64,000 nt of DNA from a virus (taxonomy: Duplodnaviria; Caudoviricetes), in the IMG/VR virus record IMGVR_UViG_2833778570_000001, positions 14,239 through 78,238 of that record, one strand, 5' to 3'. A program made the position numbers and the translations under genes. The notes under the pieces were generated by a model. That model ran no database searches. It saw only the letters and a list, made by a program, of their open reading frames with translations, and was not told the DNA's origin. Shown here one piece after another: positions 14,220 through 54,648 of this stretch (positions are counted from its first letter, which is position 1; each line of letters starts with the position of its first letter).

Positions 14220-14759
14220 TTACGCTGTCACACCGACTGCCCTCTCTTTCCCGACGCCGAGCAGCCAGTCACGAAAGGCGGGCCAGGAGTTCTCGGTGAT
14301 GAGCCCTCGCACGAAGGCGTTCGCCTGCCACTCGCGGATGAGCCCCTCGCCGCGCTGGAGTAGCCAGGGCCTCTCGCGGGCGGTCCGCTGCTCCAGCATG
14401 TACTTCTCGAACTCGGCCACCGTCTCCTCGAAGGTGGCCAGCGGGTTGTAGACGAGCCAGTCGTAGCCCTTGTCCTTCGCGTAGAAGCGCTCGTCCTGGG
14501 CCGCCATCTCGACGGTGGAGTACTTCCCCCAGTCGTCGCTGCTACCCGGGGCCGCGCCCCCGGACTCCATTTGCAGCAACTCCTGCTCGAGCGCCGTCTT
14601 CTTCACCAGCGTGGCGGAGTTCACCTCGGCGGCTGCGCGCGACAGCGCGGCCGAGGCGTCCAACTGCCCCTTGATGCGGGCGATCTCCAGCCGCAGGTCC
14701 CGCTTCCGGGCCTCGGCGGCGTTGATGGCGTAGACGTCGCTCTGCGTGAGGGCGGGCAT
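14220..14759 (-). CDS. hypothetical tail-associated protein (179 aa)
   Basis: Directly follows the tail fibre gene with an AGGAG RBS. Confidence 0.7.
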   Translation of the reverse strand: MPALTQSDVYAINAAEARKRDLRLEIARIKGQLDASAALSRAAAEVNSATLVKKTALEQELLQMESGGAAPGSSDDWGKYSTVEMAAQDERFYAKDKGYDWLVYNPLATFEETVAEFEKYMLEQRTARERPWLLQRGEGLIREWQANAFVRGLITENSWPAFRDWLLGVGKERAVGVTA

Positions 14760-21174: not shown

Positions 21175-21307
21175 GCAGACATCGTGGCCACGAGCGTGGA
21201 CGGCATCCATCTCAGACCGGACACAGAGGGGCTGTTCGGCCTGCATTCGGAAGCACCTAAATCCGCCCAAATTGAGGCCACGGTCCTAACGGCGCTACAT
21301 TCCAACA

Positions 21308-23525: not shown

Positions 23526-24724
23526 AGCTCGTACAGCAGGGTGTCGAGCAGTGCGATCCGACATCTCCAGACCCGCGCCTCAACCGGCACCAGTGGACGT
23601 GAAGCGGCAAACCAGGGAAAGGACCAAAGGGTGTCGAGGAACTTGACGTAGGTGGTCGCGCTGGTCGGGACAGTTCCGAAGACCTGCCAGAGACGCCTTC
23701 GGTTGGCGTTGTTGACCGAGAGGAAGACGTCCGGCCGTTTCATGGCGAGAAGGCGGGTGGCAGCTCCCAACCCAACACCCCTCAGAGCAAGAACTCCGTC
23801 GAGGTAGGCCTCAACCACGTCGTGCGACACACGCCCCCTGACTGGAACAGCATCCAAGAAGCGCCCCAACTGCTTGGGAGAGTCGGTGGTGAGCTGCTTG
23901 AAGTAGCCCGCCCCTTGCATTCGCCCAAAGTAGCCGGTGGTGTCCCGCCCCCATCCAGCCACCAGCTTGCGCTCATCTTCTGGCATTGAAGCGAACGCTG
24001 GCCAACGATGGAACGCTTCCCGACAGGCTTCGGCCTCCCCTAGATAAGAGCCGTCCGGGTGATCGAAAACGCGAATCTCAAAACCGTTAGCCAGAGCCCG
24101 CCTCTCCTGACGAGCGATGAGGGCATAATATCCCGCCCAGTCGCAACTTAGGTCTCCCAGGCACACTGCGGCGTTAGCAGGCAAAGGCTGGGGCGCCTTC
24201 TTTATTGGAGGCTTAGGCCTGCTTTCATACAATTCATGATATGCGGCCAACCATGCCGCGCTTGGCGTGAATGCACGCGGGTCGTGCCAAGCTGCATCCA
24301 CAAACGAAAGCAGGGTGCCCGCAGCATTGCACTGAGCATCTCCCTCAAAAAGGACGTTCAGTTCCGTGTTCCCATGAAAGCCTCCCCGGGTGAAGTTCGA
24401 AGATCCCCAGAGAGCACGCACCTGCCCTCCGCGTCGTCCGACAAGCAACTTCGGATGGAAGACACCAGAGGTGTCCTCAATGACACGAAGGACTTTAGCA
24501 TTGCCAAGTTCGACCAGAACCTGGGGCTCGGTCTGAGCGAAGTGGATCCCGATAACGGCCCGGCGGACACGCTCAAGGGGTAGGCACTTCCAATGCTCTG
24601 CTGTTCCTCCAGCCGAGCTAGCCCACGCGTAAACCAAGTCAATATCCGAGGCCCAAGCCACAAGCCTGCGAAGCGCATCCATCGTATCTGCTGTAGATGC
24701 CAAGACCGTGAAATTCTCTGCCAT
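23522..24724 (-). CDS. PLD-like (HKD) domain nuclease, restriction-endonuclease-like; stop codon supplied by the IS end
   Basis: FHPKLLV..LWGSSNFTRGGF..NTELNV motif; removing the IS restores the C-terminus YELPE-stop. Confidence 0.8.
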   Translation of the reverse strand: MAENFTVLASTADTMDALRRLVAWASDIDLVYAWASSAGGTAEHWKCLPLERVRRAVIGIHFAQTEPQVLVELGNAKVLRVIEDTSGVFHPKLLVGRRGGQVRALWGSSNFTRGGFHGNTELNVLFEGDAQCNAAGTLLSFVDAAWHDPRAFTPSAAWLAAYHELYESRPKPPIKKAPQPLPANAAVCLGDLSCDWAGYYALIARQERRALANGFEIRVFDHPDGSYLGEAEACREAFHRWPAFASMPEDERKLVAGWGRDTTGYFGRMQGAGYFKQLTTDSPKQLGRFLDAVPVRGRVSHDVVEAYLDGVLALRGVGLGAATRLLAMKRPDVFLSVNNANRRRLWQVFGTVPTSATTYVKFLDTLWSFPWFAASRPLVPVEARVWRCRIALLDTLLYEL

Positions 24725-24980
24725 ACAATTGGCCTCCAGGCCAAAGAGCGTCGCAGAAAATGAGACATCCAACCCAGATGCCCCACCGCGTCTACCGCCG
24801 TTGCGTCACCAATGCCGACCAAATGACCATTATGCTGTTGGGAAAAATAGCAGTGCTCCCAGAGCCCCAGAACTGTGTGGACATGACTTTGGCGGCTCAC
24901 ACCATAGGTCATATTATCCAGAGAGGTACCGGTCTACTTCAACGACCGACCAGTAGACTTCCGCGAAGAAGAAGTCGCTC

Positions 24981-25889
24981 TCAGATGACCTCAAACGCAG
25001 GTTCTGCGTTCTCTGTGACACGAGTCGCCAGCACGCTTTTCCGCCGCAAGGGGTCCGCCTTCGACCGGTCCTTCGCGCTCTTCTGGACGAGGTCGGCGCG
25101 GTGAATCACCTCGCTCGCCTGAGCCTTCACATCCTTCACGGCCACGAGGCCACACGAGGATGACAGGTGACGAGGTTCCCCTTTCACTTTGACCGTTTCC
25201 CCTGAGAGCGATGCCAGCGCTGCACCCATGCGCCTCTGAGCCTGTTCCAGTGGCGTTGCTGGCATAACAACGACGACCTCGTCACCGCCCTTCCGGTAGG
25301 CGTCCCCAACATCGGACACGGCCTTCTCGATGGCATGGAAGAAGGCCTTGATGGCTTCGTCCCCCGTTGCATGGTCGCCGTCTTCGTTGAACGCCTTGAG
25401 CCCGTTCATGTCGAGGTAGGCCACCGACACCGGCGACTCCTCCTGGATGTTCATGATGGCAATCGCCAAGTCGCGCTCCGCATGGCGACCGTCATAAAGG
25501 ATTCCAAACGGTTCATGCAGACGAGTGGAACGAAGCTGGTCCTGCAGCTCCGCCAACCGGAGACGGCCCAAGTGCCCCAGTTCCAACTCTACACTCTGGC
25601 CATCTAGGAGCCTTGAGACAAACTCCGCGCGACCGAGTCGCTCCCTCCGCTCAAGTTCCTCTGCAACCGCGTCGAGGCCGCCACTGCCTGGCACGTAAAG
25701 GCTCTTCCTGATGTCGGGGCCATTGATCATCCCCCTAAAGAAGAGGGAGAGGACCATCTGTACTTCCTTTGCAGCCTCGAATGATCCCCCTCCCCCTCTC
25801 GGGAATTGCCTACTGACCCACCGAGTCTGCTCGAACCGGGCAAGAAATTGTAATTCCAGGAAGCGAGCATCATTTTTGTACTCTGCCAT
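24981..25889 (-). CDS. GGDEF (diguanylate cyclase-like) protein with unknown N-terminal domain (moron)
   Basis: VAYLDMNGLKAFNE..DHATGDEAI, AYRKGGDEVVV, SSSCG, RADLV. Confidence 0.85.
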   Translation of the reverse strand: MAEYKNDARFLELQFLARFEQTRWVSRQFPRGGGGSFEAAKEVQMVLSLFFRGMINGPDIRKSLYVPGSGGLDAVAEELERRERLGRAEFVSRLLDGQSVELELGHLGRLRLAELQDQLRSTRLHEPFGILYDGRHAERDLAIAIMNIQEESPVSVAYLDMNGLKAFNEDGDHATGDEAIKAFFHAIEKAVSDVGDAYRKGGDEVVVVMPATPLEQAQRRMGAALASLSGETVKVKGEPRHLSSSCGLVAVKDVKAQASEVIHRADLVQKSAKDRSKADPLRRKSVLATRVTENAEPAFEVI

Positions 25890-26022: not shown

Positions 26023-26718
26023 TCAGCGGATGAGTCCCACTGCCGGGAACCCTCCGTACGGCAGGACGGCAGCGACTCCGAAGCGCAGCTTGCAACTGGC
26101 GAGGCGCTTCCCGCACCGGTCCTCTATGGCGCTGGACGTAGGCGTGTCGTTCACCTTCGCCACTGGCGGCCCCGCGTAGCCGCAGCCCTCGCCGCGGTAC
26201 TCCCAGGGGCACAGCTGCGTGATGATGCGCAAGGGGATGCGGACGCCATCCAGGTCGCACTTCGCAGCCAGGCTGAACTCGATGACGTGCTTGTTCTCCA
26301 CCGTCTTCTGGTCCACCACGAACTCGTCGTCCGGGAAGGCGTCCAGCGGCGAGGCGGTGGGGTTGATGCCTCCGGGGAAGTTCACCGCATCCAGGTAGCG
26401 GACGAAGGTGCGCTTCCGCAGGACGCGCGCGCCCAGCAGATCGTTCAGGTCCCTCGCCATGGCGCCGATGGTGCCGGCGACGTTGGCGAGCGTCAGGGTG
26501 GGCCGGGGTAGCCGCCCCATGCCGGACTTGTCGAAGCCCTTCACCTGGATAGCCCAGGGCTCGTACGCCATGCCCTGCCAGACGACGGGCCCGCGGAGGC
26601 CGTTGGTGCCCGCGTGGAAGTGGCTGACGCCCCCGCCAGGCAGGTTGGTGGCGTCCAGGACGAAGAGCTCCACGAGGGCCCCTGCGTCCAGCCTTTGGAT
26701 GTCGCTGGCGATGCTCAC
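26023..26718 (-). CDS. minor tail protein L
   Basis: VELFVLD, VWQG..Y, PRPTLTLAN, RKRTF.RYLD..NF and Cys cluster CPWEYRGEGC..D.CGKRLASCKLRF. Confidence 0.92.
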   Translation of the reverse strand: MSIASDIQRLDAGALVELFVLDATNLPGGGVSHFHAGTNGLRGPVVWQGMAYEPWAIQVKGFDKSGMGRLPRPTLTLANVAGTIGAMARDLNDLLGARVLRKRTFVRYLDAVNFPGGINPTASPLDAFPDDEFVVDQKTVENKHVIEFSLAAKCDLDGVRIPLRIITQLCPWEYRGEGCGYAGPPVAKVNDTPTSSAIEDRCGKRLASCKLRFGVAAVLPYGGFPAVGLIR

Positions 26719-27302
26719 CCTGCCTCCTCCTGGAACGTCGCGGTGAAGTCGTAGGCGTTGAAGCCCTTCGCGGTGCGGTGCCACTCCTCGCACACGACGT
26801 GCGCCGCCAGCTCGCCCGCGCCGGTGAAGGTGAGCGCGGCCCCGGTGGCTGGCGCCACAGCGAAGGTGACGAGCCCCGAGGCGGAGAGCACGTAGGCGGT
26901 CCCCGCCACCTGGGCGACGCCCGCGACGTAGATGGTCGGCGGCGCCGTCCAGTTCGTGGCCGGCACCAGCAGCTCCGGCGTCTCCGGGGACAGCGGTCGC
27001 CGCAGGAGCCACTGCGTCCGGGCCCCGTCCCCCGCCCCGAAGGGCTGCACGGCGACGGACCAGGCCGTGTCCGGGGTGACGAACTCGAAGGGCTCGACGC
27101 CCGCGCGTGCGCGCAGGAAGGCCTCCAGGGCGTCCGCGTTTAACTTCGCGAGGTTAGAGAACTGGAGGGCCCAGCGCCGCAGGACGGGGTTGAGGCCGTC
27201 CCCTGAGCGCTGCGAATAGCCGTCGCCGAACTGCGCCCTGCGCACGCGCGGCGCCGCGTCCGCCTGGGCGCCATAGTCGGGGGTGAAGGGGAAGCGCTCC
27301 AT
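26715..27302 (-). CDS. minor tail protein M with an internal inserted domain
   Basis: FGDGYSQR..DGLN..W, FLRARAGVEPFEF.P and C-terminal TATFQE of gpM; extra FGAGDGARTQW..LVTFAVAPATGA segment. Confidence 0.85.
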   Translation of the reverse strand: MERFPFTPDYGAQADAAPRVRRAQFGDGYSQRSGDGLNPVLRRWALQFSNLAKLNADALEAFLRARAGVEPFEFVTPDTAWSVAVQPFGAGDGARTQWLLRRPLSPETPELLVPATNWTAPPTIYVAGVAQVAGTAYVLSASGLVTFAVAPATGAALTFTGAGELAAHVVCEEWHRTAKGFNAYDFTATFQEEAG

Positions 27303-39549: not shown

Positions 39550-40467
39550 CTAGTTGGTGACGCCCTTCGCCACGGCGAGCGCGAGGTCGCTGTACACGGC
39601 CAGGCCGCAGTAGAACTTCACGCGGGTGATGGACTCGTCCTTCGTCTCGGACTCGCCGATGTTCTTCACCTGGATGCCCATGGCCTTCTTCGCGTGCAGG
39701 CCGGCGATGCCCACCCGCTGGCTGCCATCATCCAGGCAGCCAGCGACGATGCTGGTGGACGTCGTGCTGCTGCCCTGCGTCTGGTTGGTGGGCATCCAGT
39801 CGTTGCGGAAGACGGGGACGCCCTCGTACTCCAGCACCTCCTCGCCGCTCGGCAGCTTCAGCGTCTCGACGATGCCGGCGCCGCCCTGGCCGCGCAGCAG
39901 CGACTTCAGCGAGCGGATGGTGCGGCCGTGCATCATCAGGAAGTCCACCTTCCCGTCCTTCGCCTTCACCGCGTCCAGCAGCTCGTCCAGCATCTCGAAG
40001 GAGAGGGCCCCGCCGTTGGCGCCCGCCGTCAGCGTCTGGCCCGAGCTGGCGAGGCCCAGGAGGCCGACGAACTCATCGTTGGCCCCCGTCCCGTTGATGA
40101 GGAGGTTGGAGTACTTCCGGCCCACCGCCTTGGCCTTGCCGGCCACCTGCACGGCGAGCTGGTCCGTCGTGTCCGAGTGCGTGGCCTCGATGAAGTTGTC
40201 CACCTCGGCGTCGCCGACGATGCGCTTCAGAGGGCTCGTCACCTGGGTGAAGGTGGTGGCCGCCTTGGCGGTGATGGAGCTGCCGACGCCGAGCATCTGC
40301 ACGTCGCCGAGGACGTTCTCCCGGTTGTAGACGGCCGCGGGGCCCTCGACGGGCTCGAAGGGGAGGACGCCGAAGAAGCGGTCCACCGTGACGATGTTCT
40401 CGACGATGCCGGCCACCAGGTCGTTGTTCGACAGCTTGGCGGCCTCGGAAAGGATGACGGAAGGCAT
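39550..40467 (-). CDS. major capsid protein
   Basis: 305 aa after the scaffold; LPFEPVEG..YNRE, DAEVD.FI, EYEGVPVFRND, RVKFYCGLAV. Confidence 0.85.
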   Translation of the reverse strand: MPSVILSEAAKLSNNDLVAGIVENIVTVDRFFGVLPFEPVEGPAAVYNRENVLGDVQMLGVGSSITAKAATTFTQVTSPLKRIVGDAEVDNFIEATHSDTTDQLAVQVAGKAKAVGRKYSNLLINGTGANDEFVGLLGLASSGQTLTAGANGGALSFEMLDELLDAVKAKDGKVDFLMMHGRTIRSLKSLLRGQGGAGIVETLKLPSGEEVLEYEGVPVFRNDWMPTNQTQGSSTTSTSIVAGCLDDGSQRVGIAGLHAKKAMGIQVKNIGESETKDESITRVKFYCGLAVYSDLALAVAKGVTN

Positions 40468-40583
40468 GGAAAGGCTTTCTTCCTCGCGTGAGAGGGAAAA
40501 GAAGACGAGTGGGCGGACGCGCTACGGCGAGGGCTGGGGAAAGCCCGGTGGACGCGTCTGATTTGGAGGGAGAGTGACTGCGT

Positions 40584-40631
40584 CCGGGCATCCCGCCCGG
40601 TTTGCTTCAGGCCGCATCCCGCGCACCTGAA
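40584..40631 (-). promoter_or_regulatory. twin hairpins with identical C-GGGAU-G loops in the scaffold-capsid intergenic region
   Basis: On the minus strand: ttcagg-t-g-cgc GGGAT gcg-g-cctgaa and ccgggc GGGAT gcccgg. Confidence 0.5.
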
Positions 40632-40635
40632 ACGG

Positions 40636-41388
40636 CTACTTCAACTCGGCCAACCCCTTCGCGATGCGCTGCGTAGAGGAGAGCTTCTCACTGCCGGGCG
40701 TCCCGCCCGTTTTGCCCCCCGGCGGCGTCCCGCTGCCGGAGGAACCCGAGCTTTCGAAGGCCCGGGCGAAGTCCGGATTCTTCTTGAGCTCCGCGACGAA
40801 CTCCCGCGTCGTCACGTAGCCGCCCGACTTGTTGACGCGAGGCTCACCCTTCGCGTCGACAATTCGAGCCAAGAAGTCACCGTCTTCCTCAATCACTTTC
40901 ACATAACGCTCGACGTAAGGCAACAGCAGCGACGTGCTCCCCTTCGCGTCGGCGATGGCGGCCAGCGCCTCCGCGTGCGCGACGCGCTGGTGGTACGTGG
41001 TGCGCATGCGCTCGATGGTGGACTCCTTCTCGGTGAGCGTCTTGGAGTGCCCGGCCTCCAGCTCCGCGCGCTGCTTCTCCCACTCGGCCGCGCCCTCCCT
41101 CCCCTTCTGCGCCTCGGCCAGCTGCGCGCGCAACTCGCCCACCTGCTTCTCCGCGTCCTCGGGCGTCTTCCCCAGCTTCTGGTAGCCGGCCACCTGGGTC
41201 TTCAGCTCCTTCACCGCGTCGCGCTCCTTCTTCAGCGCGGTGCTGAGGCTGGTGGTGTCCATGCGCTTCGCCAGGTCCGCGTCGAGGAGGTGCTTCGCGC
41301 CCTCCCCTTCCCCCTTCGCGTACAGCCCGCGGAACTTCTCCGGGACGATGTCCAGCGTGTCCAACTCCTGCTGCCACTCGAATTCCAC
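40636..41388 (-). CDS. capsid scaffolding protein
   Basis: GTG with GAAAGG RBS; charged coiled coil; Gly/Ser-rich C-terminus ..RIAKGL. Confidence 0.8.
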   Translation of the reverse strand: MEFEWQQELDTLDIVPEKFRGLYAKGEGEGAKHLLDADLAKRMDTTSLSTALKKERDAVKELKTQVAGYQKLGKTPEDAEKQVGELRAQLAEAQKGREGAAEWEKQRAELEAGHSKTLTEKESTIERMRTTYHQRVAHAEALAAIADAKGSTSLLLPYVERYVKVIEEDGDFLARIVDAKGEPRVNKSGGYVTTREFVAELKKNPDFARAFESSGSSGSGTPPGGKTGGTPGSEKLSSTQRIAKGLAELK

Positions 41389-41417
41389 GTGTCTGCCTTT
41401 CTCGGCCCGGTGGCCGA

Positions 41418-42635
41418 CTACAGCTGTGCCTTCTTGAAAGCGGCGGCCTCGGCGGCGCGCAGCTCGTCCAGGGTGAGCGTCTTGCCGCTGGCATCGGTGA
41501 AGCTGCCAAGGCGGAGTCCTGCATCCCGGAAGAGGCGACCGCGCGCGGGTCCCAACACCTCGTCCTGGAAGCTTGTGGGCTGACGGCGCAGCCAGTCCTC
41601 GTAGGACAGGCCCTTGGGCGCGGAGCCGATGTTCTCCTTGGCCCAGCGCTCGCGGATGCGCTTCACCGCCGCGCCGCGCTCCTTCTCCGTCATGTCCTTC
41701 CAGGCCTCGCCAGCCTTGGACTTCGCCTCGGCCCGGAAGTCGATTTCCCGGTTCCGCCTGTCGCGCGTGTCCCGGACGGTGGGCCTGTCGCCCACGAGGC
41801 GCACTCCGTCGATGACGGGGATGGTCGTTGTCCGGCACCGGGGGTGGAAAGGAGGCCGCTTCCCTTCCCGCACGGGGAACTCCTTCCCATCCAGCGACAT
41901 GCACAGCAGCGTGGTGCGCCCGTCCAAGGTCGCAACCAGACGCACAGCCGTCACGAGGTCGGCGTTGGCCCGGTACACCTCCTCCCGGGCCTGGGTGGCC
42001 ACGTGGTTGAGGGAGGTACGCACCATCGCGTCCGCGCCCCGCCGGGTCACCTCCAGGACGCCGTCCGAGTAGGACGCGGAGCGAGTGCCCATGATGTCCC
42101 GGACGATCTGCGACGTCGTGCGCCCCTCCACCACGCCCGCCTGGACGGCGCGGTCGATGCGCACCAGGTCCGCCTCCGCAATCCCCTTCACCCAGGACTC
42201 AAGGACGGCGCCGTTGAAGGGCCGCGAGAAGACGGCCGCCTCCAGCACCTCCGCCGTGGGCGCGGCGATGGAGACATCCACGATGAGCGTCTCCTCCAGC
42301 AGGGCCGCCTGCCACCGCGCCTCGTACGCCGCGAAGGAGGCAGCCTCCTCCTGCAGCGTGCTGGAGAGGGCGGCGTAGGCGCCGGCCCGGAGGGTGCGCA
42401 CCTCGGACAGCAGCCCGGCGATGCGCTCCGTCGTCTCGCGGCCGGCGTCGTACCCGCCCGCGTCCTCAATGGTCTGGAGGCGCGCGGCGAGCTGCTCCGT
42501 GAGGCGCCCCTCCGTGTCGTTGAGGAGGCCCACCACGCGCCGGGCCACGCCGGCCTTGTAGCGCTCCAACTGGACGGCGTGCGCGACGGAGCGCTCCAGC
42601 AGATCCTCGTTGGCGGTGGGGCGGACGGTGCTCAT
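41418..42635 (-). CDS. minor head protein (SPP1 gp7 / Mu gpF-like)
   Basis: MVRTSLNH, VATLDGRTT..C..LDG, PPFHPRCR motifs. Confidence 0.9.
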   Translation of the reverse strand: MSTVRPTANEDLLERSVAHAVQLERYKAGVARRVVGLLNDTEGRLTEQLAARLQTIEDAGGYDAGRETTERIAGLLSEVRTLRAGAYAALSSTLQEEAASFAAYEARWQAALLEETLIVDVSIAAPTAEVLEAAVFSRPFNGAVLESWVKGIAEADLVRIDRAVQAGVVEGRTTSQIVRDIMGTRSASYSDGVLEVTRRGADAMVRTSLNHVATQAREEVYRANADLVTAVRLVATLDGRTTLLCMSLDGKEFPVREGKRPPFHPRCRTTTIPVIDGVRLVGDRPTVRDTRDRRNREIDFRAEAKSKAGEAWKDMTEKERGAAVKRIRERWAKENIGSAPKGLSYEDWLRRQPTSFQDEVLGPARGRLFRDAGLRLGSFTDASGKTLTLDELRAAEAAAFKKAQL

Positions 42636-42799
42636 CGGGCACCACCCTGGCGTGCATCCGCGCCCAGCTCGATGAAGGCCCGCCGGGCCGTCCAGTCGTG
42701 CAGCGCGTCTCCCCATGCCTCGGGGAGCACCTCCATGAGAGGGTGGGCGACGACGTTGTGCACGAAGCGCCAGAGGCGGGCGCGCAGGGCCGGCGTCAT
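42632..42799 (-). CDS. 55-aa hypothetical protein
   Basis: ATGA overlaps at both ends; HNVVAHPLME..LHD.TA. Confidence 0.6.
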   Translation of the reverse strand: MTPALRARLWRFVHNVVAHPLMEVLPEAWGDALHDWTARRAFIELGADARQGGAR

Positions 42800-44271
42800 G
42801 CAGCCCTCCCGCCGACGGGCAGCTGCTGGCCCTGCGGCACTTGGCCACCCGCTGCCGGCGCCGTGCGCAGGCTGCCCAGCGCGGGACCCTCGCTCGCAAG
42901 GCGCTCCCCGTCCACCTCCACGTCGAAGTCGGCCATGAGGACACCGCGGCGCTTGAGCTCCGCCAGGAAGGCGTCGCGGGAAATCTCCCGGGCCGCCCGC
43001 GCCTTGAAGAGGACGTCCAGGCCCTGCGCGTCGGACTCGGAGATGCCGAAGTCGGTGTGCACCTCCACCTTCAGCTTCGCGTCCTCCACCTCCAGCCCCA
43101 GCCACCGGGCCGCGAAGTAGAAGGCCAGCTCCAGCGCGTCGCTGAAGGACTCCGCCATGGCCTGCAGCTCGGAGTGGGCCTGGGCGGTGTTGATGGACTT
43201 TTCGGTGGCCGTGGGAGTGCCGGAGCGCCGGACGAGGAGCTCCACGCCCAGCATGGCCATCTCGTCCTTCAGGTCCTCCAGGTCCTGCCGGCCAGCCGTG
43301 ATGGCCGCGCCGGTGTGCTCCACGTAGTAGAACTTCCCCTGCGGACTGCTTGTGGTGAGGAGCGCGTGGGGCCCCACCGTCACCTTCCCCGAGCCTCGCC
43401 CCTCCCCTTCCCCGCGGTCCTGCTCCAGCCCCGAGGCCGCCAGCATGGGGAAGCGCGCCACGGTGAGGACGTTCCGCTGGTCGCTGGCGGACTGCCAGTG
43501 CTCCACGTTCTTGTCCGCCAGGTCCATCAGTGGAGGCTTCGCGGCGCACAGGGCCGTGCGCTCCCCGGCGTACCAGGTGACGAGGGGGATGAAGCCCAGC
43601 GTGTTGGGGCCGCTCGCTGCCTGCTTCCACTCGCTGGTGCCGCTGCGCTCGTAGACGGCCCAGGTGTCGCGCTCGAGGACGCGCACCCGCTCCACCTGCA
43701 CCTCTTCGAAGCCGTCCCGGCGCGTCTCGCATTCGCGGATGCGCACGTGGGTGAGCACCTCCACCCCGCCCACCGTTTCCGCATACGCGGCGATGAGGGA
43801 CTCGGCGGAGACGTGCACGAAGTACGGGCGGAGGCCGGCGCGCTGCTCGTCCTCCAGCGTCCGCACCGTCTCCGGATCCACCACCGGGAAGTCCACGAGG
43901 ATGTGGGCGAGGCCCTTGGACAGGCCATCCCGGAAGACGCCGCGGGCCCAGGCGGTGATGTCGCTGCCCTGCCTGTCCACGTCGTCCACCAGGACACGCA
44001 GCGGCTCGGGCGCGGAGTCGCCCAGGCGCACGGGCTTGGCGAAGGGCTTCGCGGCGAGGTTGCGCACCGTCTTGCCGAAGACGTTGAGGAGGACGGCGCG
44101 CGCCAGGCGCTCCTTGTACGCGTCCTCCTCCTCCGCGTGGTAGCGCGGCAGGTAGGTGCGGCCAGCGGCGCGCATGGTGCTGGTGCCGCCCAGGAGGGCC
44201 AGGACGAGGGCCCACGCGGGCTGCATGGCCCGGTAGGCGCTGCTGGGGGTGCTGACGTCGGCGGCACTCAT
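42796..44271 (-). CDS. portal protein (DUF4055-like)
   Basis: LLGGTSTMRAAG..YLPR..EEEDAY..RL.RA, KPPLMDLA..N..HWQ..SD, TATE motifs. Confidence 0.9.
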   Translation of the reverse strand: MSAADVSTPSSAYRAMQPAWALVLALLGGTSTMRAAGRTYLPRYHAEEEDAYKERLARAVLLNVFGKTVRNLAAKPFAKPVRLGDSAPEPLRVLVDDVDRQGSDITAWARGVFRDGLSKGLAHILVDFPVVDPETVRTLEDEQRAGLRPYFVHVSAESLIAAYAETVGGVEVLTHVRIRECETRRDGFEEVQVERVRVLERDTWAVYERSGTSEWKQAASGPNTLGFIPLVTWYAGERTALCAAKPPLMDLADKNVEHWQSASDQRNVLTVARFPMLAASGLEQDRGEGEGRGSGKVTVGPHALLTTSSPQGKFYYVEHTGAAITAGRQDLEDLKDEMAMLGVELLVRRSGTPTATEKSINTAQAHSELQAMAESFSDALELAFYFAARWLGLEVEDAKLKVEVHTDFGISESDAQGLDVLFKARAAREISRDAFLAELKRRGVLMADFDVEVDGERLASEGPALGSLRTAPAAGGQVPQGQQLPVGGRAA

Positions 44272-44762
44272 TCCGCAGGCTCCATGCGGCGGATGGCCGC
44301 CTCACCGCGCACCGCGGTGAAGACGCTCGCCACCACGTGGCCCTGCATGGCGGACGGGCCGGAGAGCAGCAGGTGCAGCACCTCCGGCCGCTCGGCGTTG
44401 AGGGTTTCGCGGACGGAGGCCTCGTCGGTGCGCGACAGCCGGGCAGGCCCGCCCGGGTGGGTGTGCCAGTCGCCCAGGTAGCGCAGGCGCGGGCGCAATC
44501 GTTCGAGGAGGCGGTTGTCGTGGAGGCGATCCGCGTCGTAGCCCACGCGTCCGCGCATGGCATTCCGCCCGGGGCCGGTGATGGCGAGTACGTGGGCCTC
44601 GCCGTCCACCACGGCGCCCAGCAGCAGGCCGCCCGTCTCCAGCGGGGCGCGCACCCGCGCCAGGCGCAGGGCCTTGGCCAGGACGCCGGGCGCCAAGCGC
44701 ACGCGGTACCCGTCCGAGACGTAGAGGGCCGGCGCGGACGCAGTCGGCAGGGGGCAGGCCAT
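44268..44762 (-). CDS. JAB/MPN (Prok-JAB, Cap3-like) metalloprotease
   Basis: ETGGLLLG..ITGPG..YLGDWHTHP..LSRTD complete JAMM motif; coupled to terL (TGATG) and portal (ATGA). Confidence 0.88.
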   Translation of the reverse strand: MACPLPTASAPALYVSDGYRVRLAPGVLAKALRLARVRAPLETGGLLLGAVVDGEAHVLAITGPGRNAMRGRVGYDADRLHDNRLLERLRPRLRYLGDWHTHPGGPARLSRTDEASVRETLNAERPEVLHLLLSGPSAMQGHVVASVFTAVRGEAAIRRMEPAE

Positions 44763-46318
44763 CACCGGTAGCTCCTCACCTGGAAGGTGGCCGTGCCCTC
44801 GCCGAGCATCAGCTCCGTCAGCGCCCACACCACCGCGTCCATGCGGTTGGGGCTCCAGTCCGACTCACCCGGCACCCACGTCGTCTGCTCGTCCTCCAGG
44901 GCAGCGAGGCGCACCACGTGGTGTGCCATCCCGCGCTCGTAAAGGGCGGCCACCGGTGCCGCGCGCTTCGCCTTGCCGCGCGTGGCCGTCACCACCTTCA
45001 CGGTGACGTGCTTCTTCATCTCGCGCGCCTTGGTGCGGACGTTCGTCTCCACCATGTCGCCGCCATAGTTCTTCTCGCCCACGACGGCGTCCGCGCGCTC
45101 CTTCTCGTAGAGGGCCAACGCCTTCGCCGCCCAGCCCTCCGCGGAGTACTTCCCCGAAGCATCCAGCCACACGTAGGCGTGGCCGTTGCTGGCCTTGCCG
45201 GCGCAGACGATGCCCACCTCGTCGTTGTCGGGCCCGTCGCCACCGGCCGGATCCACCGCCACCACCACGCGCACCATGGGCAACGGCTTGCCCTCGGCGT
45301 CCTTCGGGAGCTCGGCGCGGCTGTTGTCCAGCAGCTCCTGAGTCCACAGCGCGCCCACCGCCGCGGCCTTGAAAGCCTCCTCCACCGTCGCCGGGTACTC
45401 GCGGCGGAAGTCGTGGATGCCCTTCTCGTAGACGGAAATCTTCGCCCGGCGCCAGGCGAGCTGCGCGTCGGCCAGCTCGAAGCCGTGCGCCTCGCGGCAG
45501 AGGGCGGCGTACCGTTCCTCCTCGCTGGTGCGCTCGAAGCCCGGCGGCACCTCGCGCCGGTATTCCTCCTGCCAGAACCACGGGACGAAGATGAGCTCGA
45601 AGTCGTTCTCCCCCTTCTGCGCCGCCATGCACAGGTGGTGGAAGAGGCCCTGGGGCCCGTCGCTGGTGCTCTCCAGAATGACTTCGGTGCCCGGCGCCGT
45701 GGGCACGCCCTCCATGACGCCGCGCATGTGCGTCGCGGCGTTCGGCCAGAAGGCCACCTCACTGCCGTGGAAGTACTGGATGGTGGAGGAGCGGCCCGTC
45801 CCCTTCGCGCCCGCGGTGCCCACTTTGTAGCCGGAGGACAGCTTGTCGAAGAGGAGCTCCTTCGCGTTGGAGGCGCTCGTCGAGGGCTTCACCAGGGCCG
45901 GGACATGGTCGTGGTACCGCTTCGCCATGTCGAAGAGGTTCACCGTCGCCGCGTCCTCGTGCGTGAGGATATAGGCGCGCACGCCCTTCAGGTGGCTCAC
46001 CTTCCAGTAGAAGCGCGCTTCCACGTACGTGCTGCAGCCCTGCTGGCGCCCCTTCAGGACGATGGCGCGCACGAAGCCCCGGCGCTTCAGCTGCGCCTCC
46101 AGCCGCTCGTGGATGTACAACTGCGCGCGGTTGAGCTTCAGCGCCGGCAGCTCCCCGCCCGTCACCTCCTTCGGGCGGATGCGCAGGCACCGCGAGGCGT
46201 AGTGCGGGAAGTCGTCCTTCAGGCGCTGGCGGATCCGCTTCTCGCGCGGGGAGAGAGGCTTGCGGCGCGCCCCTTGGTGGGGCGGCTCGGCCGCACGGCA
46301 ACGGGCGCGGGCGCTCAT
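44762..46318 (-). CDS. terminase large subunit
   Basis: VLKGRQQGCST (Walker A), FHGSEVAFW, LESTSDG, VAVDPA nuclease motif, SPNRMDA. Confidence 0.92.
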   Translation of the reverse strand: MSARARCRAAEPPHQGARRKPLSPREKRIRQRLKDDFPHYASRCLRIRPKEVTGGELPALKLNRAQLYIHERLEAQLKRRGFVRAIVLKGRQQGCSTYVEARFYWKVSHLKGVRAYILTHEDAATVNLFDMAKRYHDHVPALVKPSTSASNAKELLFDKLSSGYKVGTAGAKGTGRSSTIQYFHGSEVAFWPNAATHMRGVMEGVPTAPGTEVILESTSDGPQGLFHHLCMAAQKGENDFELIFVPWFWQEEYRREVPPGFERTSEEERYAALCREAHGFELADAQLAWRRAKISVYEKGIHDFRREYPATVEEAFKAAAVGALWTQELLDNSRAELPKDAEGKPLPMVRVVVAVDPAGGDGPDNDEVGIVCAGKASNGHAYVWLDASGKYSAEGWAAKALALYEKERADAVVGEKNYGGDMVETNVRTKAREMKKHVTVKVVTATRGKAKRAAPVAALYERGMAHHVVRLAALEDEQTTWVPGESDWSPNRMDAVVWALTELMLGEGTATFQVRSYR

Positions 46319-46914
46319 TCCAGCTCCCCCAGCGCGTCCTCGTGGCTGAACTGGACGGTGGTTTCCACCTTGTCGACGAAGAGGCGCAGGTGCTTGCCCA
46401 GCAGCTCCAGCGACTTCGGCTTGTCCCACAGCTTCACCTTGGCCACGGTGCCGATGGCCTCTCCGTCCACGGTGAGCTGCTCCACCTCGATGGAGGAGAT
46501 GGCCCGGCGCAGGTGGGCCGGCATCTCCTTCAGCGGCAGCAGGGCCCCCGTGGGGCTGAAGGCGTCGCCGATGTCCGTCCGGGCGATGAGGAGCAGCTCG
46601 CGCAGGACGTCGTCCGCCTTCACCTCGACGCGCTCGGCCCGGGCGGCCTTCGCGGCATCTACCGCCGCCCGGACCTTGGGATTGCTTAGCAGCTTCGAGG
46701 CCGTCACCTCCGCGGACCGCTCGGAGTAGCCAGCGCGGATGGCGGCCTGCTTCCCGTTGAGGTCGACCAAGTACTCCTGGACGAAGCGCTCCTGGTTCGC
46801 CGTCAGCGCCTGGGCGCGCGACTCACCCGCCGGCGTCTTCCGGCTGCGGCGCGTGCTGAGCTTGCGAGGAGGCGTCCTACCCACGCCGCCGAGTCTCCGG
46901 TGTCGCGTGGACAA
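46315..46914 (-). CDS. terminase small subunit
   Basis: QERFVQEYLVDLNGKQAAIRAGYS..A..LL.NP, KVKLWDKPKSLELLGKHL. Confidence 0.9.
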   Translation of the reverse strand: MSTRHRRLGGVGRTPPRKLSTRRSRKTPAGESRAQALTANQERFVQEYLVDLNGKQAAIRAGYSERSAEVTASKLLSNPKVRAAVDAAKAARAERVEVKADDVLRELLLIARTDIGDAFSPTGALLPLKEMPAHLRRAISSIEVEQLTVDGEAIGTVAKVKLWDKPKSLELLGKHLRLFVDKVETTVQFSHEDALGELE

Positions 46915-47209: not shown

Positions 47210-47587
47210 TCAGCCCTGTCGCTCGAGTTCGTCGCCCCACAGCGCGAGCTGCCCTTCCGGCTCCGACCGCGTCCGCGGGGCGCGAGGGGTCGGCTCTACC
47301 TGGGCTGCCGAGGGCGGCTCCTTCAGGGCGTAGCCCTGGGCCGCCTTCCGGAGCCTGTCCTGGGCACGCGCGAACTCCTCCTCATCCCCGTCGCCCGCCT
47401 CCGCGTAGGCCAGGGCTGCGGCCGTCAGCCTGTCCCAGGGCGTGGCGTAGGGCTCGCGCAGCGGCTCCGACATGGACTGCCCGCGCCGCTGCCGCATGAG
47501 GTGCCCGTGGCAGCGCCGGTGCCTAGGCGCCCGGGGCCGGGTGCAGTCGACTTCGGAGCACTGGTCTGGGGAGCGGCAAGAGGACAT
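47210..47587 (-). CDS. hypothetical phage protein with N-terminal Cys/His cluster
   Basis: C..C..C..CHGH then MSEPLREPYATPW; a degenerate second copy lies at 49480-49674. Confidence 0.55.
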   Translation of the reverse strand: MSSCRSPDQCSEVDCTRPRAPRHRRCHGHLMRQRRGQSMSEPLREPYATPWDRLTAAALAYAEAGDGDEEEFARAQDRLRKAAQGYALKEPPSAAQVEPTPRAPRTRSEPEGQLALWGDELERQG

Positions 47588-47766
47588 GGACGCCCCTACT
47601 GTGCCGCAGCCCCAGGCGACGTGCGAGAGAAGCGGCACTCCACCCTCGCTTTGGGCACCTCCGCCTGGTTCTCCTGCAACTGAATGGCCACGCACTGGTG
47701 GTAACATCCGATGGCTGCGCGTGGACCAGTGCCAGTCCCGCTCTCGAACTCGCCAGGAGGGAAGAC

Positions 47767-48573
47767 ATGAGCGCAATCCAACTCACGACGGACCGCGACT
47801 ACAAAGCTTGGCGCGGCAAGAATACCGTCGGCTTCATCGCGAATATGACGAAGACGCGGCTCGCGTCCTACTATGTCATCCACAACATCAAGTGCACCCT
47901 CATCAAGCCGGGGTCGGCACGCTCAAACGCCCCTGGCGCATTCACCGAACGAGGCTATCTCAAGACGGTGGGACCGACGGTCGAGAGCGTCATCGACTGG
48001 GGGCATCGCGAGGGCTTTCCGTTCACATCGATGCGGCCATGCCAAGGGTGCCTTAAGGGCGCGAAGCTGCCCCTTCCAACTGTCGCATCGCTCTCTCGTC
48101 CTTTCGACCCGGCACGAATGCCGAAGGACTTCACGAAGGGCTCCGAATATGCGTCGCGGGAGGAGACCCTCGCCCTCCGCGAGAAGGCAACAAAAGGCCA
48201 CCACGAACTGCTCGTCAATCTGCATAAAACACTGACGACATCTGACTGGACAGACCTGGACGAAATTCCGACTGCCATTGACCTCTGGGCTCGAAGCCCA
48301 AGGAGCCGAAAGCGCGTCATCTTCGAGGCCAAGACGCTAGGGAGCCAAGTGGACCAAACACGCTCCGGCCTCGCCCAGTTGCTCGAATATCGACACGTCC
48401 ATGGGGCACCCGGGGACGATTTGTGCCTCGTCGTTGATGGACCACTTCGTGAAAAACGAAACGAAATTCTAGCCGCCTCAGACATTTCCGTCCTTTGGCA
48501 TGACGGACATCGATTCCAAGCCTCTGGCAATGCGTCCCGGAGCTGGCTGACAACCCTCATTAACAAGCACTGA
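47767..48573 (+). CDS. PD-(D/E)xK nuclease-domain protein (moron)
   Basis: IDLW..VIFEAKT..Q.R.GLAQLLEY; N-terminal H..C..C..C cluster; lower GC, opposite strand. Confidence 0.7.
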   Translation: MSAIQLTTDRDYKAWRGKNTVGFIANMTKTRLASYYVIHNIKCTLIKPGSARSNAPGAFTERGYLKTVGPTVESVIDWGHREGFPFTSMRPCQGCLKGAKLPLPTVASLSRPFDPARMPKDFTKGSEYASREETLALREKATKGHHELLVNLHKTLTTSDWTDLDEIPTAIDLWARSPRSRKRVIFEAKTLGSQVDQTRSGLAQLLEYRHVHGAPGDDLCLVVDGPLREKRNEILAASDISVLWHDGHRFQASGNASRSWLTTLINKH

Positions 48574-49464: not shown

Positions 49465-49803
49465 GCCCCCTCACCGTGCCTAATCCCGGGCCCGTCCGCA
49501 CGGAACGCGCTGACAGCCACGCCGGGGGCGGTCCTGGGCGAGGGAGAACTCCTCCTCGTCTCCGTCGTCCGCCTCCGCGTAGGCCAGGGCCGCAGCCGTC
49601 AGCCGCTCCCAGGGCGTGGCGTAGGGCTCGCGCAGCGGCTCCGACATGGACTGCCCGCGCCGCTGCTTCAGCATTGCATCGCACGCTTCGGCCCCAATAT
49701 CCGAACAGACCCGACCCCTTTCCAGTCAGCCACGCCGCGGAGAGGCCCGCCCCTGGAATGCCCGGAGTGAGGCAAGCGCCGCTGCCTCACTCGCCAAGTT
49801 CTT

Positions 49804-51126
49804 TCACGCCGCCGCCGAGTCGGGCTCCTTCACCACATCAACGATACGTGGGTGATAGCTATCAATCGACCGGCCAATCACGCTCGCGCAACGGCGGAAA
49901 TTCCCCTGCTCACCTTCAATGCTTATTTCCAGAGCAATGCGCGCCGCGAGGTTGTCGTCAATCTGAGGACCAGCCATAGTCAAAACCTGCCGCATGACAT
50001 ACCAGCGATTATGAGACCTGCCCATCTCGGCCGCAGCCAATACGACCGCCGCCTTCGTAGACATATCGCCCTTTGCATACAGACTGAGCATCCGAGCAGC
50101 GACCACGTCGCAGAATGCCCATGTAAATCCAGTTTCTCGCACCCACCGACAATACGCAGCAGCGATGACCCCGCCGAGGCCTGCGTCGCGCTCAATCAAC
50201 GCCCCAAGCTTCGGCTCGTCAAGTGAACTATAAATCGGATCATTCTCACTAGTATTCGTCGACTCCTCCATATGGCGCGCGAAGTCTTCGAGTTGCGCCA
50301 CATCCCATGTGGAGATGGTCTCAAGCAGCTTCAACCATTCCGCTTCCTGAGTCGTTGGAGTGACCGGGGTTGTCGGAGTCTTCAGTACCGTGAAAAGGGC
50401 GGCACGAAGTAGTCCAATATCCTTGAAGCGCTTGTTCGGAGTTTGTTCGGTCGCCTTCTCGATAACCCGACCAACCGGGCCCGGCCCGGTCTGCCTCATA
50501 AATGGCACACGTGGCTTCCCGACAAAGATGTCGTGAAGAATGCACCCCATCGCGTAGATGTCAGCCGTGGCAGTCACCGCCCCAAATTGCTTAGTCTGCT
50601 CAGGGGCCATGTACCCACTGGTTCCCCACGCAGAATCTGTAGACGTAAGCTTCGTAGTGACTGAACTGCTAGGCGGAAGAGCAAGCCCGAAATCAGACAG
50701 CTTCCACTTCCCCTCATGGAGCAGCACATTCTGAGGCTTCAGGTCGCGATGAGTGTAGCCAAGCGAATGCACATGATCGAGTGCGTTCAGAATGTCAGCA
50801 AGAGCATTGGCATTCAGCACACCCGTCGAATGGTCCTCATCAATCTGAACCGAATATGACCTGTCAGCGAGCGGCATCAAGTACGACGGCTCGGCCGAAA
50901 CGAGGTCTGAGTCAATCACAGGAATGACAAAGTCGCCGCCCAGATGAGACTGAATTTTGACTTCGCGGATGAAGCGCTGCCTCGCCTTTGGGATGTCAGC
51001 AGAAGGGATGCCAGGGCTCGGAGCAAAGATTTTACGTGCAACGATGCGTCCATCCTCCAGCTGCACTCGCTCAACACGTCCAAATCCTCCATTCGCAATT
51101 GCATCTATGATCTTAAAATTCAGCAT
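49804..51126 (-). CDS. Hanks-type Ser/Thr protein kinase (moron)
   Basis: GGFGRV, VARK, RFIRE, HRDLKPQN, DFG, GTSGYMAPE, DIYAMG all intact; lower GC; no TM segment. Confidence 0.92.
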   Translation of the reverse strand: MLNFKIIDAIANGGFGRVERVQLEDGRIVARKIFAPSPGIPSADIPKARQRFIREVKIQSHLGGDFVIPVIDSDLVSAEPSYLMPLADRSYSVQIDEDHSTGVLNANALADILNALDHVHSLGYTHRDLKPQNVLLHEGKWKLSDFGLALPPSSSVTTKLTSTDSAWGTSGYMAPEQTKQFGAVTATADIYAMGCILHDIFVGKPRVPFMRQTGPGPVGRVIEKATEQTPNKRFKDIGLLRAALFTVLKTPTTPVTPTTQEAEWLKLLETISTWDVAQLEDFARHMEESTNTSENDPIYSSLDEPKLGALIERDAGLGGVIAAAYCRWVRETGFTWAFCDVVAARMLSLYAKGDMSTKAAVVLAAAEMGRSHNRWYVMRQVLTMAGPQIDDNLAARIALEISIEGEQGNFRRCASVIGRSIDSYHPRIVDVVKEPDSAAA

Positions 51127-52083: not shown

Positions 52084-54648
52084 TCAGCCGCGGCGGTCCA
52101 CCGCGTCGCCCATGGCGAGGATGAACTCGCTAGGCTCCGTCCCGGCCCAGAGGACATGCAGCGAGCGGCGGCAGCGCGAGAGCGCCACCAGGAACAGGCG
52201 CAGGTCGTCCTCGCGTCGCGTTTCCCGGTGCAGTTCACTCTTCACACTGCTGAAGTCCGGCATGCGGTCACGGTCCGCTCCCACCACGATGCAGAGCTCG
52301 AACTGCTGGCCCTTGACTTGCCGCGCCGAGCTGAGGGTGATGGCCTTCTGGGGCGTCCGTCGGCCCTCGCCATCGGGCTGGTGGTGCTGGATACCGTCGG
52401 ACACAAGGAAGGTGCCCACCCGCTCCAGGAGGGCACCGTCGAAGCCGATGACGCCCACATCCCGGGGCTTGCCCCCGCTGTCGAGGTAGCTGCGCACGAG
52501 GTCGCGCACCTGGGCGAACATGACCTGCTCCCCCGCAAACCCGCTGACGATTGGGCGCTCGCCGTTGTTCCCCTCGCTGCCCGTCTGGAAGGCGCCCCAG
52601 TTGTCGACAAGGCCGAGCGTCGGGTAGGCAGTGATGAGCTGGTGAAGGGCGGCGACGATCTGGCGGGTGCTGCGAAAGTTCTGCTCCAGACGAGTGCCCT
52701 GGAAGCGCACGTCGGTGTCGAAGCCAATGTCGCGCAAGCTGGGGTAGCGGGCGTAGACGGCTTGCGCTTGGTCGAAGCACATCATCATCCCCTCGGGCCG
52801 CTTCACCAGGTGGCGCAGGAGCGTGAGCTGGTTGCGGAAGAAGTCCTGCGCCTCGTCGAGGATGAGGTAGTCGAAGCCGTCCTCCGGCTTGCGGTACTGC
52901 TGCCACACCGTCTTGGACACCTCCTTGATGGCGTCGTTCGTCAGGTCGTCCGAGTCCACGAAGCCAAGGCTCCGGAGCGTATCGTTGTAGATGGTCGCAA
53001 TCTCCCAGACGAAGCGTTTGAAGGGCTTCTCCGATGCGGCCAGCCACCAGCCTGCGGGCCGCTTCTCGTTGAGGTAGGTGGTGAGGTCCGCGATGTCCCG
53101 AGCTTTGATGAACTGGCTGATCTCGGTCTCGATTTCCCAGAGCCCGTTCTTGCTGCGGGCGTCGAACTGAGACCAGAGGGACTCGTACTCCCCCCCGGTG
53201 AGTCGGCGCCGCGCCTCGTCGACGGCGAGCTGCAGGGCCGCGTGGCGGTTTGCGTCCCCCTTCTCCGCTCGGTAGGCGGCGAGCGGCTCAATGCCGAGTT
53301 CATCCACCTTCACGAAGCGGGCGCACCAGTCGTGGAGGCTGGTGATTGCGATGTGCTGTGGATGGGAAGGGGCGAGAAAGCGCTCCATGCCCAGCCCGCT
53401 GACCTGCTCTAGCACCTTCACTCCAAGGTCGGGGTTGAAGACCAGGAAGCCGATGCGTGCCCGCTGCCCCTGCTCCTCCGCGCGCCTCGCCACGTAACCT
53501 GCCCGCATGACGGCCGTGAACGTCTTGCCCGTGCCGGGGCCACCCTGCAGGCGGATGGGGGCGTCGCGCTCCGTCTTCACCACTGAAGCCTGCTGCGGGG
53601 TGAGCATGGCGAGCGCGGACTCGAAGCTCTGCCCCAGGGAGGCAGAGCGCCCCGTGGCGCTCATCTGGTAGACCTCGAGTGTCGTCAGGCGCTGCGCACG
53701 CCGACGCGCCTCGGCGATGAGCTTGTGCTGGAAGGCGCGCTCGACAGCTTCGTACTGTCCCTCGGTGAGGTGGTCCATCAGACCGATGAGGTCGTCCTCA
53801 ATGCGCATGCCGAGAACCTGCCGCATGAGGTGCTGGTCAGTAATGCCGAGTTCGCGCAACCGATTGAGGGGGAGCCACCCGTCACGGAGCGGCACCTCGG
53901 GTGGTGGCGTCTCCGTGATTCGCGGCCGGTCCAGTGGCTCAAGCTGCTCGCGCATCCCGTGTGCCGCCTCCTGCAGCTTGCGGTAGCCCGACATCTGCTG
54001 CTCGGGCGGCTGCCGGATTGAGGCAGAACCAGCGTGCGTGGCCCAAGGCTTGGCGTCGAACAGTCCCAGCACCGCCGCGAAGCCCGGTGTCTCCACGAGG
54101 AAGTGGAGGCGGTGGTAGTCGCCCGGTGCGAAGATAGAGTGGATGCTCTTCTCGCGGAGGTACTTGAGGCCTGCCCGCTCGCGCGATGAGTCGATGTTGG
54201 CCACGTCGAGCACACGTCGGAAGAGCGACTCCCAGTCACGGTCGGTAACGAACTCCTCGACGACGTCGCCCGGGAGGATCACGTCGTGCCACGTCTCCTT
54301 CGGTGCCCCGTCGGCGGCGGGCGACACGTCGAAGATGCCCGTCACCCCCGATAGGATGCTGGCCGCACGGAAAAGTCGGCCGGCCACCTCGAAGTCCAGG
54401 CTGCTGCGGTTGATGGGCGGCGGGGTTCGGTCTACGTACGCCATCGCTTCGGCCAATGCAGCGTGCCCCTTCGCCCCCAGCCTTCTCAGCAATCGCTCGC
54501 TCAGCCACACCGTGTTCACGCGTGTCCCCCGCCAGGTGATGTCTTCGCGCGATAGTGCAGGTGCGCCATGGGCAGGGTCAACGCGGTTCACCTCACCTTC
54601 TACCCGCGCCCCTAGGGCTTTCCGTGGCTGGGGGATGCAACGGACCAC
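52084..54648 (-). CDS. UvrD/Rep-like SF1 helicase with long unknown N-terminal region (start may be the GTG at 54591)
   Basis: LQGGPGTGKT, LILDEAQDF, FDQAQAVY, NFRST, VKGQQF, FLVALSR motifs. Confidence 0.88.
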   Translation of the reverse strand: MVRCIPQPRKALGARVEGEVNRVDPAHGAPALSREDITWRGTRVNTVWLSERLLRRLGAKGHAALAEAMAYVDRTPPPINRSSLDFEVAGRLFRAASILSGVTGIFDVSPAADGAPKETWHDVILPGDVVEEFVTDRDWESLFRRVLDVANIDSSRERAGLKYLREKSIHSIFAPGDYHRLHFLVETPGFAAVLGLFDAKPWATHAGSASIRQPPEQQMSGYRKLQEAAHGMREQLEPLDRPRITETPPPEVPLRDGWLPLNRLRELGITDQHLMRQVLGMRIEDDLIGLMDHLTEGQYEAVERAFQHKLIAEARRRAQRLTTLEVYQMSATGRSASLGQSFESALAMLTPQQASVVKTERDAPIRLQGGPGTGKTFTAVMRAGYVARRAEEQGQRARIGFLVFNPDLGVKVLEQVSGLGMERFLAPSHPQHIAITSLHDWCARFVKVDELGIEPLAAYRAEKGDANRHAALQLAVDEARRRLTGGEYESLWSQFDARSKNGLWEIETEISQFIKARDIADLTTYLNEKRPAGWWLAASEKPFKRFVWEIATIYNDTLRSLGFVDSDDLTNDAIKEVSKTVWQQYRKPEDGFDYLILDEAQDFFRNQLTLLRHLVKRPEGMMMCFDQAQAVYARYPSLRDIGFDTDVRFQGTRLEQNFRSTRQIVAALHQLITAYPTLGLVDNWGAFQTGSEGNNGERPIVSGFAGEQVMFAQVRDLVRSYLDSGGKPRDVGVIGFDGALLERVGTFLVSDGIQHHQPDGEGRRTPQKAITLSSARQVKGQQFELCIVVGADRDRMPDFSSVKSELHRETRREDDLRLFLVALSRCRRSLHVLWAGTEPSEFILAMGDAVDRRG

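Follow-up and report, generated by a model that had tools for sequence, protein, structure and literature searches.

The 64,000-nucleotide stretch of DNA analyzed here (the window) comprises positions 14,239 to 78,238 of the IMG/VR record IMGVR_UViG_2833778570_000001. It is most of a 78-kb provirus with a G+C content of 68%, whose closest relatives are prophages of Corallococcus and Myxococcus. Between the genes for the large terminase subunit (terL) and the portal protein the window encodes a JAB/JAMM isopeptidase (referred to here as the JAB), which resembles Cap3 of type II CBASS (systems of antiphage signaling based on cyclic oligonucleotides) and stands alone. The gene is dispensable, variable cargo and not part of the head machinery. 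Judged from comparative analysis, its product may well be a phage-borne deconjugase that counters the Cap2-type conjugation of CBASS.

The protein matched the Pfam family Prok-JAB (PF14464) with an E-value of 3.5e-13 (49.9 bits, the cut-off being 25) and the family JAB (PF01398) with 27.4 bits against a cut-off of 22.5. The original prediction for this gene, which had been made from the sequence, claimed a complete JAMM motif in a product of 164 residues, and this motif is indeed intact (E42...H100xH102...S110..D113). In a 39-sequence alignment of relatives the five residues E42, H100, H102, S110 and D113 are invariant, and the blocks ETGG, TGPG and DWHTHPGG are present in the JAB. The top PADLOC models were CBASS JAB models (1.4e-16), with most of the model length covered. 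Among NCBIfam models the nearest were TIGR02256, Cap3 and a fusion of Cap2 and Cap3 (Cap2-3); in each case the score is far under the curated cut-off. TIGR02256 corresponds to the IMG label 'integrative and conjugative element protein'; the family includes VC0181, which we take to be the Cap3 of V. cholerae.

An AlphaFold2 model calculated from the alignment (pLDDT 92, pTM 0.87) has the predicted MPN fold of the JAB/JAMM (MPN+) metallopeptidase superfamily. The best Foldseek match in the PDB was 9ild_A, a structure of Cap3 with a nucleotidyltransferase of the cGAS/DncV-like type (CD-NTase), with an E-value of 4.5e-11 and TM-scores of 0.79/0.85. Cap3 came first among the 189 PDB matches at E<=1e-3, followed by Rpn11 and CSN5. 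PHROGs contains no family for the JAB, and nothing was found when 50,697 deposited phage genomes were searched with its sequence by tblastn.

The JAB gene lies within a co-directional head and packaging block. The features of this block, together with the gene for the other JAB domain of the phage, are as follows.

46315-46914, minus strand: small terminase subunit terS, which opens the co-directional head block (Terminase_2 2.1e-39; phrog_51)
44762-46429, minus strand: large terminase subunit terL (Pfam Terminase_6C 1.9e-10; phrog_979/38/2 terminase large subunit)
44772-44777, minus strand: GAGGAG Shine-Dalgarno-like motif, 9 nucleotides 5' of the JAB ATG and within the 3' end of terL (read from the sequence, reverse complement of 44760-44789)
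44268-44762, minus strand: orphan Cap3-like JAB/JAMM isopeptidase gene, 164 residues, ATG start (Pfam, alignment, AlphaFold2 model, Foldseek)
42796-44271, minus strand: portal protein (DUF4055 1.6e-40; phrog_145 portal 1.9e-134)
39550-42944, minus strand: remaining head block (Pfam, PHROGs)
41418-42944, minus strand: MuF-like minor head protein (Pfam, PHROGs)
40636-41904, minus strand: scaffold (Pfam, PHROGs)
39550-40467, minus strand: major capsid protein (Pfam, PHROGs)
20443-21270, minus strand: tail assembly protein gpK (Prok-JAB 3.8e-19; NLPC_P60 6e-10)

Both of the gene overlaps that had been predicted can be read in the sequence. At the upstream junction the pentanucleotide TGATG (44764-44760) has one base in common between the terL stop and the JAB start, and at the downstream junction the portal start overlaps the JAB stop, TGA, in ATGA (44271-44268). 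A longer JAB frame with a GTG start (44828) is also present; in the alignment the orthologues begin at the ATG. Since no promoter-like or terminator-like site was found on the minus strand from terS to the capsid gene, co-expression of the JAB with the packaging genes is plausible from the sequence. No minus-strand terminator-like site occurs before 39382. A prohead protease was not recognized in the head block with Pfam or PHROGs.

As had been predicted, the gene is separate from gpK, which is encoded in the tail module and combines a JAB with an NlpC/P60 domain, and it lacks a partner E1 or E2. The latter holds for the whole 78-kb provirus, which contains two JAB domains (the JAB in the head block and that of gpK) and neither a ThiF E1 nor a SMODS cyclase, i.e. 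no CD-NTase. A custom Cap2 hidden Markov model likewise found no match in the window and did match the positive controls L017 and L023. The operon with Cap2 (E1-E2) and CD-NTase to which a Cap3 belongs is therefore missing from the provirus, and the E1 expected in the operon of a deubiquitinase (BilC-type) of a bacterial ISG15-like (Bil) system is missing from it as well.

The JAB gene travels with the portal junction. It is located directly upstream of the portal gene in all 11 sister proviruses from IMG/VR, and this adjacency is kept in L011 and L012, whose terminase belongs to another type (checked in L011), as well as in L008, where the TerL of the window has no match. In 12 proviruses, with identities as low as 62%, the reading frame is uninterrupted, and all five catalytic residues are again invariant. 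For close pairs, omega was 0.21-0.33 for the JAB and 0.12-0.32 for the portal, so that the JAB is slightly more relaxed; by this measure it is maintained under purifying selection.

The content of the slot between terL and portal varies. The JAB is alone in the window and in L003, and it is followed by an HslV/proteasome-beta-like peptidase of 178 residues in seven other proviruses and in C. carmarthensis (L037). This Ntn peptidase, which is absent from the window, lies between JAB and portal at L002:6492-7028 (plus strand) and was also found in L004, L005, L006, L007, L009, L010 and L037. It starts with M-TCIAGVV, has an invariant Thr1/Asp17/Lys33 and matches phrog_1040 (7e-21). We considered an obligate pair of JAB and peptidase and rejected it, because the peptidase occurs without a JAB within 5 kb in seven other viral contigs and the JAB of the window occurs without the peptidase. 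The HslV-like peptidase is a separate cargo, independent of the JAB.

A prophage of Corallococcus sp. RDP092CA (L038) has a head module very close to that of the window, with identities of 91% for TerL, 91% for the portal and 94% for the capsid protein. Its slot is occupied by an unrelated open reading frame (ORF) of 279 residues (L038:4165-5004, plus strand), and the L038 genome gave no match to the JAB at E<=1e-3. For this ORF nothing was found in Pfam, PADLOC, PHROGs or Atlas. Its last nine residues (HEDALGELE) are identical to the C-terminal ones of the small terminase, a hint that recombination took place at a repeated sequence. In phages whose portals are 38-40% identical to that of the window, terL abuts the portal gene and there is no JAB. 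The junction takes insertions in other lineages too, since a distant phage with a portal of 36% identity carries an endonuclease VII-like gene (phrog_1035) there (L035:3182-3913, plus strand). The JAB-less sister head module, the variable slot and the omega values mark the gene as accessory cargo, which would presumably serve to inhibit a defense.

Database matches of the protein fall into two groups. The first comprises orthologues with 59-93% identity, found only in Corallococcus and Myxococcus; after a sharp drop in identity there follows a large set of 'TIGR02256-family' JABs with 35-48%. For the closest non-phage homologues, i.e. this second set, we collected 80 metagenomic loci and scanned the gene directly upstream (n=51). 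A ThiF E1 domain was found in 35 and a Prok-E2_B domain in 14 of the 51 neighbors, the signature of Cap2, and no phage family was matched among them. Because Cap2 is directly upstream and phage families are not, the nearest cellular relatives are, on this sequence evidence, genuine Cap3s.

The original prediction had named a phylogeny as a check, and we compared the JAB with both Cap3 and gpK. The maximum-likelihood tree unites the JABs of the 12 myxophages in a single starred clade, which lies among several Cap3 clades, and the JAB of gpK is a remote outgroup with a branch length of 7.1. The affinity to Cap3 was thus borne out, with the reservation that the phage proteins have a long-stemmed clade of their own. 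A recent capture from the CBASS of the host itself was rejected: identities to the Cap3s of Myxococcaceae are only 31-37%, and the two belong to separate starred clades. Taken together, sequence, fold and neighbor analyses support the earlier label of a Cap3-like stand-alone JAB.

The host family was surveyed in 201 species-representative genomes of Myxococcaceae. Cap2-type genes with a Prok-E2_B domain are present in 14 of these, and about 10 further species genomes contain an operon of a CHAT protein, a C25-like peptidase, a CD-NTase, Cap2 and Cap3. Its CD-NTase and Cap2 match the PADLOC models PDLC00822 (8e-139) and PDLC00848 (5e-200), respectively, and the CD-NTases end in ...GRFA. Type II CBASS operons are thus found in roughly a tenth of the sampled species genomes. 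In L077 (1341-9589, minus strand) and its relatives L074-L080, a zf-HC2/TPR/CHAT protein of 990 residues, a small ORF and the C25-like peptidase of 474 residues precede CD-NTase, Cap2 and Cap3. A second operon variant (L081-L083) includes a SAVED-domain protein. The prophage JAB itself was detected in 5 of the 201 species genomes, and the genome with a prophage JAB of 93% identity also encodes a Cap2-Cap3 pair of its own.

Based on these results we propose the following course of events. A lineage of temperate siphoviruses of Myxococcaceae would have taken a Cap3-type JAMM isopeptidase from a type II CBASS-like operon and would today have it without its partners, as an optional cargo of the terL-portal slot, where it would be translated together with the late head and packaging proteins. 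The enzyme would cleave isopeptide or thioester-derived conjugates of the CD-NTase C-terminus made by the Cap2 (E1-E2) of the host. With the conjugates removed, the priming by which cyclic-nucleotide output is raised would be reversed, and CBASS would be damped when it fires during infection. What we infer from the evidence given above is the substrate, the timing and how defense is affected. Conjugation of the CD-NTase C-terminus to targets by Cap2 is known to enhance signaling and defense; Cap3 cleaves these conjugates, and loss of Cap3 raises conjugation (PMC10097602). Prohead proteases can trigger CBASS late in infection (preprint, PMC12991175).

The earlier view of the gene as an anti-defense candidate has gained strength from its nature as dispensable, variable cargo under purifying selection, from the lack of a partner E1 or E2 and from the fact that Myxococcaceae, the host family, possess type II CBASS; its mechanism is a matter of inference. 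Ubiquitin-like antiphage systems had been suggested as the target in general. Within these, the evidence favors Cap2-made conjugates of CD-NTase and speaks less for conjugates of ubiquitin-like proteins (Ubl) of the Bil type. Processing of the phage's own Ubl or Hint products, the other role that had been suggested, is disfavored by gpK having its own JAB and by a near-identical head module that lacks this one. A Hint product in the phage is not established in any case: a protein of 709 residues encoded downstream of gpJ (window 14769-16898, minus strand) shows a weak, sub-cut-off match to Hint/Vint (E 0.006).

Several points weigh against a viral Cap3 directed at CBASS. The equivalog thresholds are failed both for Cap3 (NF050170, 35.5 bits against a cut-off of 200) and for TIGR02256 (50.3 bits against 127.6). 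The stem of the myxophage clade is long (1.47 changes per site), so the specificity of the enzyme may have drifted, and the identity to Myxococcaceae Cap3s given above is low. Cap2 was detected with PF14461 in only one of the five lysogen genomes found. Late expression is deduced from gene overlap only. Cap3 is required in defense against some phages. Finally, the rationale of a protease trigger may not apply to this phage, which has no recognizable prohead protease.

The JAB fold is common to Rpn11, CSN5 and other Ubl-cleaving enzymes, and the protein could instead be directed against another ubiquitin-like defense, of the Bil type or encoded by some other E1/E2/Ubl operon, by stripping Ubl from virion proteins in assembly and not by acting on CD-NTase. 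A gene located amid structural genes would deliver its product when virion proteins are exposed, the long stem branch would permit a change of substrate, and Hor et al. speculated that phage deubiquitinase domains such as that of gpK could counter Bil (10.1101/2023.09.04.556158). However, the closest sequence relatives are Cap2-adjacent Cap3s and not the deubiquitinases of Ubl operons, and the best match among solved structures is Cap3 with CD-NTase. In addition, Bil is known to target the tail fiber, and with gpK the phage already possesses a tail JAB. We consider this alternative unlikely.

The setting of the gene in a head module is not restricted to myxophages. The scans of IMG/VR were restricted to contigs with a YLGDWHT-type motif. 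The resulting 24 contigs comprise 11 myxophages, 5 true CBASS operons with Cap2 and 8 orphans, and in seven of these eight orphans the Cap3-like JAB is part of a head/packaging module of an unrelated phage. The arrangements are listed below.

L015: TerL, JAB, small ORF, portal, prohead protease
L016: Mu gpG-like protein, JAB, Mu protease I
L019: JAB, TerL, portal
L021 and L022: T7-like portal, small ORF, JAB, protease, capsid
L013 and L014: 'head closure' protein, JAB
L190: orphan JAB amid small early-like ORFs

The free tree scatters the orphan JABs of other phages among the Cap3 clades and needs 4 changes; one clade of all phage JABs is not rejected by the approximately unbiased test (p 0.23). 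Independent capture by each phage lineage is thus suggested by the free tree, and the data fit a spread between phages equally well.

Such placements would also suit a morphogenetic accessory protease, which would trim a phage protein (for example a C-terminal tail of the head, portal, MuF or scaffold protein) in head assembly or packaging. In all 12 proviruses the gene is beside the portal gene in the head/packaging block, three of the orphan relatives in the head modules of unrelated phages adjoin prohead protease genes, and the phage studied here has no recognized prohead protease of its own. Head assembly in the sister prophage L038, by contrast, is encoded with TerL, portal and capsid proteins of 91-94% identity and an unrelated ORF in place of the JAB, and more distant relatives join terL straight to the portal gene. 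In other phages the slot also takes the HslV-like peptidase or an endonuclease, which is the behavior of cargo, and the deposited phage genomes gave no tblastn match to the JAB. We regard a morphogenetic role as rather improbable. Very improbable, finally, are two further readings, in which the gene is what is left, decaying or selfish, of a CBASS fragment once captured and has no present role, or in which it benefits the lysogen by tuning the CBASS of the host: the patchy distribution (5 of 201 species genomes), the varying slot content and the lysogen with its own Cap2 and Cap3 would fit, but the invariant catalytic residues, the frame kept intact in 12 proviruses to 62% identity and the omega of 0.21-0.33 do not. 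Expression in the lysogen is also at odds with the tight translational coupling of the gene in a late operon.

Extending the proposal of a viral Cap3 beyond the myxophages, one may tentatively regard orphan Cap3 homologues as a new class of enzymes with which phages counteract CBASS, a possibility for which we would claim less than for the JAB itself. They would mimic the 'off' enzyme of the host and erase Cap2-made CD-NTase conjugates, and they would be lodged in head/packaging modules of several unrelated lineages so as to be made when late structural or protease triggers fire CBASS. Full-text literature searches found no paper on a stand-alone phage Cap3 or on any deconjugating anti-CBASS factor. 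An enzyme family that is known is found here in a genomic setting that is new, and its role is presumably inverted. If this is true, a viral Cap3 mimic attacks the ubiquitin-like priming step and is the bacterial counterpart of the deubiquitinases of eukaryotic viruses. It would also be a natural tool for probing the purpose of Cap2 conjugation and its reversal by Cap3, which was left open by the 2023 papers (PMC10097602). Orphan JABs recur in the head modules of phages that are unrelated, which suggests a connection of capsid morphogenesis with CBASS triggering that can be tested. If the JAB instead processes a phage protein, it defines a new accessory head protease.

Some further features of the window were observed. 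Between gpL (26023-27012) and gpK (20443-21270) a segment at 22276-25889 (minus strand) interrupts the tail module; it looks like inserted cargo together with a mobile element. Two genes are located upstream of the packaging genes. The members of both groups are listed here.

24981-25889, minus strand: GGDEF diguanylate cyclase, in the gpL-gpK interruption
23522-24772, minus strand: PLD-like protein, in the gpL-gpK interruption
22276-23610, minus strand: DDE transposase, in the gpL-gpK interruption
49804-51126, minus strand: Ser/Thr protein kinase, upstream of the packaging genes (Pkinase 1.6e-29)
52084-54648, minus strand: UvrD-like helicase, 854 residues, upstream of the packaging genes

A direct repeat of 145 nucleotides was found at 47348-47492 and 49522-49666 (90% identical, 2174 nucleotides apart). 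A small conserved ORF, located upstream of terS, is partly duplicated by it, and the two copies flank a 2-kb stretch with a plus-strand ORF of 291 residues (47698-48573) that belongs to no Pfam family.

The JAB resembles CBASS Cap3 (V. cholerae VC0181/TIGR02256; NF050170; PDB-entry 9ILD) in being a single domain of about 160 residues whose JAMM site is the same and in which the blocks ETGG, GPG and DWHTHPGG occur, and its nearest cellular relatives are encoded directly downstream of Cap2. In contrast to Cap3, it lacks a neighboring Cap2, CD-NTase or effector and is encoded by a phage in the terL-portal junction, and its presumed role is reversed, serving the virus and not the host. With the gpK-type tail protein of lambda it has in common that a phage encodes the JAB domain and that the metal site is intact. 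The lambda protein, however, is a two-domain fusion (JAB and NlpC/P60) in the tail module near gpI and gpJ, whereas the JAB described here consists of a single domain. To our knowledge, every anti-CBASS factor described so far is directed at the effector or at the nucleotide signal. The purpose proposed for the JAB, the blunting of CBASS, is that of the phosphodiesterase Acb1, the sponges Acb2/Vs.4 and Acb4 and the effector inhibitor Gp15 of ICP3, the last of which is a virion-module protein (10.1101/2025.07.23.666291). Unlike Acb1, Acb2/Vs.4, Acb4 and Gp15, which act on the cyclic nucleotide or the effector, the phage JAB would act upstream, on the CD-NTase conjugate made by Cap2, and would do so by mimicking a regulator of the host.

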